NCBI GenBank assembly: GCA_000002445.1
Contig: CH464491.1
Coordinates: 5,184,001 to 5,248,000 of the forward strand
Length of the DNA: 64,000 nucleotides
Direction of reading: 5' to 3'
Source: Trypanosoma brucei
Lineage: Eukaryota
The position numbers and the translations under genes are program-made. Shown here in pieces: positions 12,354-15,922 of the stretch; the first letter of the stretch is position 1; each line of letters starts with the position of its first letter. The notes beneath the pieces were generated by a model. That model was not told where the DNA came from and ran no database searches. It worked only from the letters and a program-made list of their open reading frames with translations.

Positions 12354-12700
12354 TTAAAAGTTGTTGAATGCTACAAAAATAGTAAAAGCAGCAGCCATCA
12401 GAGCCGATTTGTTATTTAAAAGTAAACTATAATCACTTCAAGCTTTATTATTCCATTTGAAGTTATCGCCCTTTTGTACAGGCATCCGATGTAATGTGGC
12501 TAGTGCAATTTGCAGTTGCAGTTGTTTTATCCCCGTCTTTCTTTTCTCCTGTTTCGTCTCCTGTATTTTTTTGTCTCCTTCTTGTTTGGCTCCTTCTACA
12601 GCTGTTGTTAGTTTTTGCATTTTCTGAACATAGTAATAAGCCATTGTCTTCCCGAAGTTGTTCTTGTTGCAATGCTTACCAGCTCTAAAAAAACGGCGGT
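12354..12700 (-). pseudogene. VSG 3' fragment (C-terminal domain plus GPI signal only), with its 3'UTR at 12230-12353
   Basis: Minus strand encodes ...CNKNNFGKT..GDNFKWNNK and, in a shifted frame, NNKSALMAAAFTIFVAF*. There is no N-terminal domain. Confidence 0.55.
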
Positions 12701-12720
12701 GCAGCGCCATAGGCCACGCA

Positions 12721-13329
12721 CCAGGGTCTTAAAAAAAAGTTTGAAGCCTGTCCCTACGAAAAGTGCAGAAGCGAAACTCTCGAAAGCTACAAGAGTATAA
12801 TTGTAACAATGTGGGGATTAAATGAATATGAGAAAAATTTAAGCGAAGATGGCTGCCGTCCAAATAAGGGTTAGGGTTTCACCAAAAAGAGAGCTACTGT
12901 GCCACTGAAAAAAAATTAAATTAAAAAATGGGTCGATGTGAAGATGGAAATTTAAGCTGCAGATGTAAACGTGAACAAAAATGTCTGCTGCGTCAATAAG
13001 GGTTAAGGCCACATCTAAAAAAAAAGGACAAAATCATGACGGGTCACTGGTAGTAGAAAACAAGAAAAAATAAAAATAATAACCCTAACCCTAACCCTAA
13101 ACCTAAGCCTGGAAAACTTCCCTAACGTACCTCCTTCCTACCTTTTTTGTTTGCTGTACAAAAAAAATTCAAAAAGAAAAAAAAGGATAAAAATTTTCAG
13201 CTATCAGAAAAAAATTTACAGATTTAGACAGCTTAACAAAAATATTACCGGGATATTTTTACGTGTTAAAATATACCAAACAACAAAATTCTTTAAGAAA
13301 GGGAGGGGGAAAAATTTAAAAAGAAAGGC
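12721..13329. repeat. Interstitial island of degenerate telomere repeats (TTAGGG/CCCTAA), A-rich
   Basis: gggttagggttt at ~12863, ataagggttaaggcc at ~12990, ccctaaccctaaccctaaacctaagcc at 13081-13107. It also has poly-A runs and two ~110-bp degenerate tandem units ending in ataagggtta(g/a)gg. Confidence 0.75.
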
Positions 13330-14930
13330 CGCAAATGCAGAAACCATGAGGGCTAATTGCTTTTCTGCTAGAAAACTGGAGGAGCGGCAACCAGGAGTTA
13401 CTGGACCCTGACCATCAATATAGGTAATCCATCCACAAAAGTCTTTCTTTCCTTGGGGGATCGGGCCAGTTTTTTGGCGCAATTCTTAGAATTTTTGTGC
13501 GGCAGAGCACTTATCTTTTCCCCCTGAAGCTCCTTCTCCTTCTCCTGCTGCTGTGTCTTCTGTTCTATCTTTAGGTTTGCATTTGTTCTCTTTTCATCGT
13601 AATTGCATTTGTTTTTAGGGCATAACTTCTGATTTCCATTGTGCTCGGCACAAAGCTCCGCTGCCTGTTGATCTGACTGTGTCTTTGCTCCAGTTGTTTT
13701 GGGGAAAACAGCTTTGTTGGTTTTCATAGCGTTTATGTTTTCTATTGCCTCCGCTATTGCATATTGTAGTTGATCGTCGTTAATTTGAAACAGTTTTTTG
13801 GTTTGTTTTGTGTTGCCCTGCGTCGGTACCTCCGCGTTTATGGCTTTGATCGCCATTATGTAACCGCCTTCTTCGTTATCTGCGTTGACTTCGAAAAAAC
13901 TTTTAACTAGTTCGTCTGCGTTGTTTGCCTCAGCTGCCGCTTGCCACGCCTGCGCCTTCTGTGCAGCTGTTGCCAGTGCTGCCCGAGTTGTTCTGTCTTT
14001 TAGTAGGCCCTTTACTGCCGTTTCGTCCGTTGGTGTTTTTGTTACTGCTTGCCGCAGCTTGTTTGCTACTGCAGCGCGCTTTTCGCTGAGCGCCTTGAGA
14101 AGGTTATTTGTGACTGCGGCCGTGTGTATCGATGGCATGTTCTGGAAGTCTCCAGCAGCTGCTACCTGTATTAGTCCGTTTAGTGGGTGTATTGGCTGCG
14201 TTACACTGCTGTATGCTGTGTTTGGGTTTTCCGATATTCGGCATTTTGGTGCAGCTGCTCCGGTTGTTTCAGGGATTCCTGTGTCTTGAAGGGTTGTTTT
14301 GATTTCGGTTGCCAGATCTGTGATAACTGCTGTTAGTGTTGTCGTGTCTGCCGTGCCGCACTTTGTGTCAACGATTTTAGCTGCAGCGTTGCCGTCGTTG
14401 TCACCGCCAATGCACCCATTTTGTGCTGTTGGTGTCGTTTGTTGGTGGTTTTGCAGTAAGTGCATCAGTTCATCGACACGGCCTGAAGCGTACATTGCTT
14501 GTCCTACTATTTTGGTGTTCTCGCCTTCCCAGTTGACGAGGTTGCTGGTCGCTTCGTCTAGGTTTGTCGCCGCATACAGCTTGAACGTTTCTGCTGCAAG
14601 CTTCAGCGCCGGCATTTTTAGTGCTGCTAGCGAATGCTGAAGGTACGCGTGCTTGGCGGTGATCACTGCATCTTTGCCATGCTTGATCGAGTCTGCTAGG
14701 GACGCGGCTAAGGCCTTGGCTTTGGACGAAAAGGCACATAACTTTGTCCCAACACTGGCTTTGATTGGGCGTTTGTCGGTCGCGCCTTCGATACCGGTCG
14801 GCAGCGCAAGGACTAGAGCCACTAGTCTCGCCTGTTTGCTGCTCCGCTGTCGCCAGTTGTTAATGCTTTTTCGCTCCACGTCGTCTTTTCCGGCATGTTG
14901 GGCTAGTTCAGTGCCTGTGACTGCAAACAT
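13330..14930 (-). pseudogene. VSG (510-aa ORF 13398-14930) whose GPI-signal tail is in another frame, directly followed by telomere-type repeats; likely a former telomeric VSG
   Basis: Real ATG at 14930 but the signal-like stretch ARLVALVLALPTGIEG starts around residue 34. The tail GWITYIDGQGPVTPGCRSSSFLAEKQLALMVSAFAAFLF is encoded at ~13330-13480 in a different frame. Confidence 0.65.
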
Positions 14931-15684
14931 GTATTATAGTGATTGCTTGTGCTTTTTACATGGTATAGGTTGAAACAAAAACGGTCTGCGTCTGCTGCTG
15001 TCACATTCCATGAGACGGTAAACAGCACATAGGTAAAACGGAAATAAATACACATTTAAAAAATTCGACTCCCTATTGACAACCCCTTATTTAAAATCCC
15101 CCTCTGCCACTTTCATTCTGTCTTTTTTTCCAAATAGGGAATGTTCTGCCAGAGTAGCGGCTACATCCGTCTTCCTTTGCACATTTGAGTCTGCTATCGC
15201 ATTTTTGCCATTGATACAGCCATTTCAACTGCGATACGAGTCAATTCTGAGTAAAATACGGTGCATCATTGTCATCATTATCTCCTGTTTGTCTCTAGAT
15301 GTATTATTTCTGTTATGAAAAATATACAGTCACCTCAGTCTTAATTTCCTCCATTTTGGTCATCTCTCGCTTCTTCCGCCGATGATGTAGGGGCTTGACG
15401 TGACCTATACACGGAATCTGTTTCTCGGTAATAATTCTCCACATATTTTCCTTGTGCATAATGATGCCAAACATCATATATGTGTTTAAAACGCACGTAT
15501 TCACTCTTCTCTCTCATTTTCTTTCTTTTTGCATATTCCTTAATAATCTTCATTCTACTCTTCTTTACTCCCAGGATAACCCACTGTCCGACCAGCTCAT
15601 TTACTCTTAATATACTTTAACCGTTGTTTTAAGTGCTTTTATTTTATTTCTTCTATTGACTATAATTGCTTCCCTCCTCTATAG

Positions 15685-15922
15685 TATTAGCATATACATA
15701 CTCACAACACTCTCCTATTATTATCATTAGTATCAATATTATTATCATAATGATTATTATTATTATTATTATTATTATTATTATTATTATTATTATTATT
15801 ATTATTATTATTATTATTATTATTATTATTATTATTATTATTATTATTATTATTATTATTATTATTATTATTATTATTATTATTATTATTATTATTATTA
15901 TTATTATTATTATTATTATTAT
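15685..15922. repeat. 70-bp repeat with very long pure (ATT)n microsatellite (about 53 units, ~15763-15920)
   Basis: Core catatacatactcacaacactctcc followed by uninterrupted attatt... The poly-I/poly-N ORFs in the track come from this tract. Confidence 0.85.

Follow-up and report, generated by a model that had tools for sequence, protein, structure and literature searches.

Just 3' of VSG221, and separate from the telomere that it precedes, lies a T2AG3-like tract (Glover et al. 2007, PMC1807955), the presence of which was later confirmed (Glover et al. 2013, PMC3610638). This tract of 106 bp is composed of 46 bp of T1-2AG1-6 and 10.5 degenerate T2AG3 repeats; upon deletion of the telomere it seeds new telomeres in ~10% of cells, and all the mapped healing events fell within it (PMC1807955). 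In expression sites, the VSG lies 200-1590 nt from the telomere, and the tracts of 70-bp repeats are 0.2-7.1 kb long (PMC2567434). Triplet expansions within the 70/76-bp repeats are also on record, including (TAA)90 (Campbell et al. 1984) and other expanded repeats (Aline et al. 1985), as judged from the titles cited in PMC4858185, and residual expression-site sequence in subtelomeres has been attributed to an origin 'from recombination' (PMC10686619).

A standard silent cassette of a VSG array has one 70-bp repeat unit, a VSG with an N-terminal and a C-terminal domain, a conserved 16-mer in the 3'UTR, and head-to-tail neighbours of the same kind. Subtelomeric arrays of this type are rich in repeats and difficult to assemble. 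In other eukaryotes, interstitial telomeric sequences left by fusion or healing place telomere hexamers away from chromosome ends; a search of the literature found no description of such repeats in T. brucei arrays, and an earlier description may nevertheless exist. In this paper, we describe a short telomere-like run in a 64-kb window (the whole stretch of DNA analysed) of a T. brucei TREU927 subtelomeric VSG array, which contains ~16 head-to-tail VSG cassettes, all on the minus strand. The run lies at 13074-13112, in the 3' flank of a VSG pseudogene, and a TTAGGG-type run accompanies two of the ~16 cassettes. A scan of the whole 64-kb window against Rfam gave no match.

A silent VSG cassette with a telomere-like run in its 3' flank

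The VSG of the cassette occupies 13316-14930 on the minus strand. Its 510-aa ORF (14930-13398) holds an A-type N-terminal domain (PF00913, 53.7 bits), while the C-terminal domain (PF10659, 35.1 bits) and the GPI signal (…SSSFLAEKQLALMVSAFAAFLF) are encoded in another frame; this shifted frame contains an internal in-frame stop, and no stop codon follows …AAFLF. Because of the frameshift, the internal stop and the lost stop codon, the VSG is a pseudogene, so that of the 510-aa VSG placed at 13330-14930 by the initial annotation the ORF is present but does not amount to an intact gene. A protein homology search with this VSG yielded no match at E <= 1e-10, and one with a VSG C-terminal-domain query yielded two matches only. 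Upstream of the coding region, the flank (14931-15661) shows weak homology to the equivalent flanks of array cassettes (15345-15645 with 8346-8639, and 15385-15648 with 26294-26544), and is preceded by a single 70-bp-type repeat at 15662-15922, the core of which lies at 15684-15713.

This repeat unit adjoins a pure (ATT)56 run at 15753-15920, the longest pure triplet run in the window (TRF on 15716-15922: 69 copies, 94%). A run of ~53 ATT copies had been singled out as unusually long; the pure run is real and even slightly longer, but it is not exceptional, as an interrupted ATT run of ~53 copies lies at 61830-61993 and the published (TAA)90, as far as the cited title tells, is longer still. 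With a long pure triplet run in the repeat that precedes its chromosome-internal VSG, the cassette does not really differ from those (TAA)n-expanded 70/76-bp repeats. The ATT run does not support a telomeric origin, the cassette having a single 70-bp unit and an upstream flank of the array type. Furthermore, the 70-bp sequence amounts to one unit of ~0.24 kb and not to a long tract headed by ESAGs and a promoter, the next element upstream is a further VSG cassette, and no ESAG or promoter relic was found near the cassette. Since there is one 70-bp unit, an array-type upstream flank and no such relic nearby, nothing beyond the 3' flank resembles an expression site.

The first part of that 3' flank (13160-13315) is that of an ordinary VSG 3'UTR and its proximal flank. 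It carries the 16-mer as TGGTATATTTTAACAC at 13263-13278, with one mismatch to the conserved TGATATATTTTAACAC, which has 13 matches in the window against 0.97 expected. In blastn comparisons, 13162-13380 matches 38809-39024 at 69% and 13172-13383 matches 29535-29731 at 66%; thus the sequence at 13162-13330 is a 3' flank common to other cassettes. Beyond it follows a T2AG3-like tract (13074-13150, homologous to 37858-37936), whose sequence in the sense direction of the VSG is AAGGTAGGAAGGAGGTACGTTAGGGAAG followed by TTTTCCAGGC and finally TTAGGT TTAGGG TTAGGG TTAGGG TTA, a purine-rich stretch of T, A and G (~26 nt) leading into the TTAGGG run. The run proper covers ~39 nt and ~5 copies, with the G-strand on the sense strand; it includes ccctaaccctaaccctaaacctaa at 13081-13106, and TRF reports TAACCC x 5.2 copies (92%) over 13080-13110. 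The initial annotation had the repeats follow the VSG directly, whereas they begin ~150 nt beyond the 16-mer and ~200 nt beyond the coding region.

The hexamers are too many to be accounted for by base composition, which had been proposed as a test that might refute the telomere-like character of the region. Five exact TTAGGG/CCCTAA hexamers occur in 12721-13329 against 0.58 expected, and none of 2000 dinucleotide shuffles reached five, which rules out chance occurrence; telomere twelve-mers gave five matches against 0.16 expected. When an array was defined by at least 14 of 18 matches to (TTAGGG)3, only two were found in the 64 kb, at 13074-13112 and 37855-37876, each in G-strand orientation relative to the sense strand of the VSGs and ~150-250 nt 3' of a VSG 3'UTR 16-mer. 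The interstitial telomere tract of 0.6 kb that had been proposed therefore shrinks to the run at 13074-13112, the remainder of 12721-13329 being A-rich spacer (43% A on the plus strand) and conserved non-telomeric boxes.

In its arrangement the 3' flank matches that of a telomeric VSG, a likeness supported by comparison with the published verbal description of the VSG221 tract rather than by alignment. Both sequences are short, degenerate T2AG3 repeats that come after a purine-rich T/A/G stretch, are separated by a few hundred nt from the 3' end of a VSG, have the G-strand on its sense strand, and stand apart from a long telomere array; the position ~200 nt past the coding end also falls within the 0.2-1.6 kb at which sense-oriented T2AG3 follows a telomeric VSG. 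They differ in extent, 106 bp at VSG221 versus ~39 nt of repeats with a purine-rich lead here, and in setting, as the VSG221 tract precedes a telomere, while the present run lies inside an array and, instead of continuing as a long (TTAGGG)n to a chromosome end, gives way to a VSG fragment and then to more cassettes. In its single 70-bp unit, A-type N-terminal and C-terminal domains, 16-mer and head-to-tail neighbours the cassette is a standard silent one, except that ~1 kb of additional sequence precedes the next 70-bp repeat, made up of the T2AG3 run, the boxes and the 3' end of a truncated VSG; this addition is seen in two of the ~16 cassettes.

Conserved boxes and a VSG fragment beyond the run

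Downstream of the run on the sense strand, a conserved box of ~60 nt (…GAGCCGCTGCA…) is present twice; it reads …TGCAGCGGCTCTTTTTTGG…ACCCTAACCCTTATTTG… in the sense-strand order of the module and has the plus-strand consensus ATGTCTGCAG.GCAAATAAGGGTTAGGGTC.G..C.AAAAAAGAGCCGCTGCA. The copy nearer the run (12945-13060, minus strand) is degenerate and contains aagggttaaggc; the other (12826-12935, minus strand), whose plus strand reads …GATGGCTGCCGTCCAAATAAGGGTTAGGGTTTCACCAAAAAGAGAGCTACTGTGCC, holds the sole plus-strand GGGTTAGGG and aligns with 37083-37236. The box occurs five or six times in the window, only here and at a second locus at 36.4-38.96 kb, and a metagenome scan with a 32-nt pattern of the box returned no match.

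The boxes bear directly on the earlier view of the tract as degenerate and telomere-like in both orientations. Motifs of both orientations do occur at the places cited, ccctaaccctaaccctaaacctaa in the run and aagggttagggt at 12866-12877, but telomere-like matches in the opposite orientation number only one or two, each of 10-12 nt, and GGGTTAGGG sits within the conserved non-telomeric box; between the TTAGGG run and the opposite-orientation motif there are ~75-210 nt of non-telomeric sequence.

The tract is joined to a VSG 3' fragment by a spacer and junction box (12680-12825, minus strand; sense strand …GGCGCTGCACCGCCGTTTTTTTAGAGCTGG), and in blastn 12674-12738 matches 38612-38676 at 76%. The degenerate fragment (12240-12679, minus strand) retains the end of an N-terminal domain (…AYYYVQ…), a C-terminal domain (PF10659 at ~12350-12680, 24.9 bits, cut-off 21.4), a GPI signal (…LLLNNKSALMAAAFTIFVAFNNF, then a stop) and a degenerate 3'UTR, and is followed at 12149-12235 by the 70-bp repeat of the next cassette, just as had been noticed at first. 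Apart from this VSG fragment, the ORF listing contained nothing coding in the tract. When 12230-13400 was compared with the window by blastn, matches to 70-bp repeats and cassette flanks were confined to the sequence outside 12700-13160, and no ingi copy was matched; a derivation of the tract from ingi/RIME was rejected on this comparison with the copies in the window.

A second copy of the module and its possible origin

A second and larger copy of the module lies at 36390-38958 on the minus strand, behind an intact VSG (40488-38959, minus strand) that matches an annotated T. b. brucei TREU927 VSG at 100% identity. It contains four boxes (38708-38757, 37725-37770, 37536-37551 and 37185-37234), two VSG 3' fragments (~38160-38600 and ~36640-36950), a decayed TTAGGG-like run at 37855-37876 (15/18) and further degenerate TTAGGG-like runs at 37977-38001, 37440-37470 and 37236-37260, all of these features being on the minus strand; at least five hexamer-like islands are present, all with the G-strand in the sense orientation. 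Both modules have the same order, i.e. 3'UTR, purine-rich stretch, TTAGGG run, boxes, junction and truncated VSG 3' end. Local alignment of the non-coding tract at 12700-12960 with 36960-37290 gave z = 13.3, and that of the flank preceding the telomere-like run, together with the run, gave z = 4.9, whereas unrelated intergenic controls in the same test stayed at z < 1; by blastn, 12500-12913 matches 36824-37236 with E = 1.5e-12. The paralogous flanking sequence is ~60-70% identical between the modules, and the run at 13074-13112 has three more perfect repeats than its counterpart at the aligned position. The feature at 13 kb is therefore not unique, a homologous and larger tract being present at 36.96-38.96 kb in the same array. 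The box and the hexamer run are both absent from a T. equiperdum OVI contig (8.97 kb), which is ordinary array sequence.

Two consequences follow from this recurrence. As a homologous join between tract and VSG fragment exists 24 kb away, the join predates the cassette at 13 kb. Moreover, the two modules lie behind VSGs that are not related to each other, A-type (PF00913) here and B-type (PF13206) at 40488-38959, and the module therefore says little about the history of the VSG that now stands before it; that this VSG itself was once telomeric is not supported.

On balance, the locus is probably an ordinary silent cassette whose extended 3' flank is an old, duplicated relic module of telomeric type, joined to a VSG 3' fragment. 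In sense order the module consists of a normal 3'UTR and flank, the purine-rich stretch with ~5 TTAGGG repeats, two boxes, the junction box, and the last third of a second, degenerate VSG with a 3'UTR of its own. A plausible history would begin with a VSG carrying a telomere-type 3' flank, which at some time became linked to a VSG cut short near the boundary between the N-terminal and C-terminal domains. The joined unit may then have multiplied within the arrays as cassettes and segments were duplicated, with the upstream VSG later replaced by gene conversion, so that the copy at 12.2-13.3 kb and the nested copies at 36.4-38.96 kb would all descend from that unit. Most likely, the module has no activity today and is a recombination scar. 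The run nevertheless retains a sequence and an orientation with which telomerase might cap a break immediately beyond it, making the VSG telomeric. As a counterpoint to telomeric ancestry, a run of ~39 nt could be the product of slippage that started at a TTAGGG present by chance in T/G-rich flanking sequence.

That counterpoint belongs to a broader alternative, which we regard as unlikely, namely that the tract is a dispersed intergenic repeat specific to the array, without telomeric ancestry, its hexamers having come from slippage in T/G-rich DNA of low complexity. The A-rich, low-complexity composition of the tract, its forming a repeat family within the window, its mere five exact hexamers and the three extra perfect repeats, a difference of the kind that slippage would give, are all in keeping with such a repeat. 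However, same-composition shuffles fall short of the observed hexamer count, the islands at the second locus all point the same way, and both runs share with the VSG221 seed tract their orientation and their distance past the VSG 3'UTR. This last likeness could be taken further, in that the run may be a selected, functional telomere seed, or a downstream patch of homology to the telomere of an expression site, maintained because it lets a broken subtelomere be capped or lets the VSG be copied like a telomeric one. We consider such a function doubtful. The VSG221 tract does seed telomeres after telomere deletion, the run has the orientation needed by telomerase, and its 92% perfection exceeds the identity of the flanking paralogous sequence; against this, the VSG to be rescued is a pseudogene, the paralogous run has decayed, and only two copies exist in 64 kb.

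The initial annotation had also noted that TTAGGG and then CCCTAA on one strand is the polarity to be expected where two telomeres have fused end to end or a break has healed; on that reading of the locus, the TTAGGG would stem from the VSG's own former telomere and the CCCTAA from the partner end. The sense strand does present the run and then CCCTAACCC (12866-12877), and 70-bp repeat, VSG and T2AG3 do follow one another as at a telomeric VSG. Nevertheless, a fusion scar should show a (TTAGGG)n array that runs straight into a (CCCTAA)n array on one strand, and a junction unique to the locus, while here the reverse motif is a 10-12 nt part of a recurrent non-telomeric box, non-telomeric sequence separates it from the run, and homologous junctions are found at 36.9-37.3 and 38.6-38.7 kb. 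Because the order and the junctions recur 24 kb away at ~60-70% identity, any joining event took place long ago and is not peculiar to this locus; a local fusion, largely refuted by this recurrence behind an unrelated VSG and by the box membership of the reverse motif, is accordingly rejected as highly improbable. The locus differs from the interstitial telomeric sequences of other eukaryotes in the same respects, having no head-to-head array, a duplicated module, and an opposite motif within a conserved non-telomeric box. Finally, a telomeric clone misjoined into the array during assembly, conceivable given how poorly repeat-rich subtelomeric arrays assemble, is the least probable explanation, and a very remote one, as the same window contains another copy, diverged but with its parts in the same order, and the sequence on either side of the short run is unique and leads on into normal cassette ends.

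Implications for the VSG archive

The feature is a small and degenerate one in a reference genome published long ago, and its practical importance is modest. A more far-reaching idea, to which we give little credence, is that VSG arrays hold pre-positioned neo-telomere modules, each made of a sense-oriented T2AG3 seed just 3' of a VSG, conserved boxes and a spare VSG 3' end, and kept by selection instead of being a scar. If this were so, telomerase could cap a broken subtelomere at such a seed, which would turn a silent array VSG into a telomeric and easily activated one, and the adjacent C-terminal fragment would be a ready 3' donor. Short sense-oriented T2AG3 runs are also candidate sites of telomere healing and of TRF/RAP1 binding inside non-telomeric arrays, and candidate healing sites could bias which silent genes turn telomeric after subtelomere breakage. 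If the flank is indeed an old telomeric-type relic module, some array VSG cassettes would carry a fossil of telomeric residence, and such cassettes would record the traffic between chromosome ends and internal arrays, showing how the VSG archive grows.

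Genomic setting of the VSG pseudogene

All the VSG-like long ORFs in the window lie on the minus strand, in about 16 cassettes with 70-bp-type repeats between the ORFs, and an entry named 'variant surface glycoprotein (VSG, atypical), putative [Trypanosoma brucei brucei TREU927]', on a 5.26-Mb contig, matches the intact VSG at 38959-40488 at 100% identity over its whole length. Because of this cassette layout and this match, the window is a VSG array in the subtelomere of a megabase chromosome in the reference strain. Of the 14 VSG-like ORFs of at least 200 aa on the minus strand, only about 4 (639-2159, 29660-31252, 38959-40488 and 44891-46339) have a GPI-signal-like hydrophobic tail at their end, the others being truncated or frameshifted; such pseudogene-rich content is as expected for TREU927 arrays. 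Two ingi-like retroelements (18764-23756 and 48352-53336), 96-99% identical across the compared stretches, are on the plus strand, opposite to the VSGs, and a 2A-like DVEENPGP motif stands at the start of the ORF at 18988. Since the VSG ORF 23893-25056 adjoins the element at 18764-23756 and ends without a C-terminal domain, it was probably interrupted by that element.

The 510-aa VSG reported by the initial annotation is indeed an A-type VSG ORF (14930-13398; PF00913, 53.7 bits), but not an intact gene: its C-terminal domain and GPI signal lie in a different frame with an internal stop, and the terminal stop codon is lost, so that it is a pseudogene. At 13310-13325 (CTTTTTAAA) the GPI-signal frame reads …AAFLF and then AAA in place of the stop codon, the T-run appearing to be one T short; this is the third defect, beside the frameshift and the internal stop. 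The single 70-bp unit upstream contains a pure (ATT)56 run (15753-15920). A long run had thus been rightly noticed, but it is not unusual: long (TAA)n tracts are not peculiar to this cassette, since a second triplet run (61830-61993), with roughly 53 TAT/ATT copies (90%, indels included), lies in another 70-bp-type repeat, and according to titles cited by PMC4858185, '(TAA)90' and '(TAA)n' in front of chromosome-internal VSGs were already in print in 1984-85. Most cassettes of the window have a single 70-bp unit; at 44350-44539 and 33186-33387, 2-3 of the 70-bp-type units stand in tandem (period 84 nt).

A telomere-like 3' flank in two copies

Downstream of the pseudogene, a 0.6-kb telomere-repeat tract had been proposed. 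Exact telomere hexamers are enriched in 12721-13329 (5 versus 0.58 expected, a count reached by none of 2000 dinucleotide shuffles), but only 13074-13112 forms a telomere-like array at ≥14/18 matches, and the remaining ~0.5 kb is A-rich spacer. The run itself is ccctaaccctaaccctaaacctaa at 13081-13106 (TRF: 5.2 copies at 92%); the VSG sense strand has AAGGTAGGAAGGAGGTACGTTAGGGAAG, a short interruption, and then TTAGGT TTAGGG TTAGGG TTAGGG TTA. Neither does it follow the VSG directly, as had been stated; since 13162-13330 is a normal VSG 3' flank, found also near 38.8 kb and 29.5 kb in other cassettes and including the conserved 3'UTR 16-mer (13263-13278, one mismatch), the repeats begin ~200 nt past the gene. 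Further downstream lie aagggttagggt (12866-12877) and, as annotated, a degenerate VSG C-terminal fragment (~12350-12680; PF10659, 24.9 bits) followed by the next 70-bp repeat (12149-12235). An isolated CCCTAA (12223-12228), adjoining the (ATT)n end of that repeat (12203-12222), is probably due to chance.

A 12-mer search pointed to a second telomere-like site at 37860, and the surrounding 36.2-39.1 kb repeats the architecture of the first locus behind the intact VSG 40488-38959. The 3'UTR 16-mer of this VSG (38909-38924) is followed by a conserved box (38708-38757) and by a junction to a VSG 3' fragment, whose own 16-mer is at 38107-38122. Next comes an A-rich tract of 1.1 kb that contains a TTAGGG-like run (37855-37876), three further boxes and several decayed islands of hexamers; it ends at another junction, to a VSG 3' fragment that again has its 3'UTR 16-mer (36532-36547), with the next 70-bp repeat (36309) beyond. 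The stretch 36390-38958 is a larger, nested copy of the module, with two successive VSG 3' fragments, and with four GAGCCGCTGCA boxes and several decayed TTAGGG islands in its A-rich tracts.

Homology between the two loci was found by blastn, which pairs 12500-12913 with 36824-37236 (E = 1.5e-12), and also 13099-13182 with 37858-37936 and 12674-12738 with 38612-38676. Local alignment of non-coding sequence only (12700-12960 versus 36960-37290) gave z = 13.3 over dinucleotide shuffles, and that of the pre-telomeric flank plus run gave z = 4.9, while unrelated intergenic controls stayed below 1. The box, roughly ATGTCTGCAG.GCAAATAAGGGTTAGGGTC.G..C.AAAAAAGAGCCGCTGCA on the plus strand, occurs 5-6 times in the window, only at these two loci.

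Origin of the module

The initial annotation read TTAGGG-then-CCCTAA polarity as a sign of an end-to-end fusion or a healed break. This is not supported for the first locus, where no opposing array exists: the supposed second orientation is a 10-12-nt motif, GGGTTAGGG on the plus strand, which is part of the repeated, non-telomeric box. Moreover, the copy 24 kb away has the tract joined to the VSG fragment in the same way, at ~60-70% identity, so that any joining event is old and was inherited by duplication.

The proposal of a former telomeric VSG is supported for the flank, but not for the history of this VSG, on which the module is uninformative, since the VSGs upstream of its two copies are unrelated (A-type versus B-type). 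Within the 64 kb, each of the two telomere-like arrays has its G-strand on the sense strand of the VSG and lies 150-250 nt past a VSG 3'UTR element, a polarity and spacing that are those of a telomeric VSG. At the VSG221 expression site, a tract immediately 3' of the gene, apart from the telomere, consists of 46 bp of T1-2AG1-6 and then 10.5 degenerate T2AG3 repeats; after telomere deletion, every mapped chromosome-healing event fell within it (PMC1807955; confirmed in PMC3610638). As judged from this published description, our run is a shorter sequence of that kind; this resemblance, with the polarity and spacing, supports a telomeric-type flank. PMC10686619 speaks of 'residual ES sequences from recombination' in subtelomeres, and the part of the literature that was searched gave no account of interstitial telomeric repeats within T. 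brucei arrays.

The module may have arisen when an ancestral VSG whose 3' flank was of the telomere type became linked to a VSG cut short near the boundary between N-domain and C-domain; the VSG fragment of the first locus (12240-12679 with its degenerate 3'UTR) starts where the N-domain ends, around …AYYYVQ…. The composite would later have propagated inside arrays, with a tandem re-duplication at the second locus, and ordinary conversion, from 70-bp repeat to 3'UTR, probably replaced the upstream gene. The module most likely has no present-day role. The orientation of the run is the one telomerase would need; its better preservation (92%) than the flanking paralogous sequence, and its three more perfect repeats than the paralogue at the aligned position, weakly hint at slippage, renewal or constraint, which we do not regard as significant. 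Of the initial annotation, the observation is confirmed in part and the interpretation supported in part. Anatomy, orientation and recurrence, the enrichment of hexamers and the homology of the junctions are directly observed. The feature is real, yet small and degenerate; it is best classed as a VSG 3' flank of telomeric type that was internalised and duplicated, and that is linked to a 3' fragment of a VSG.
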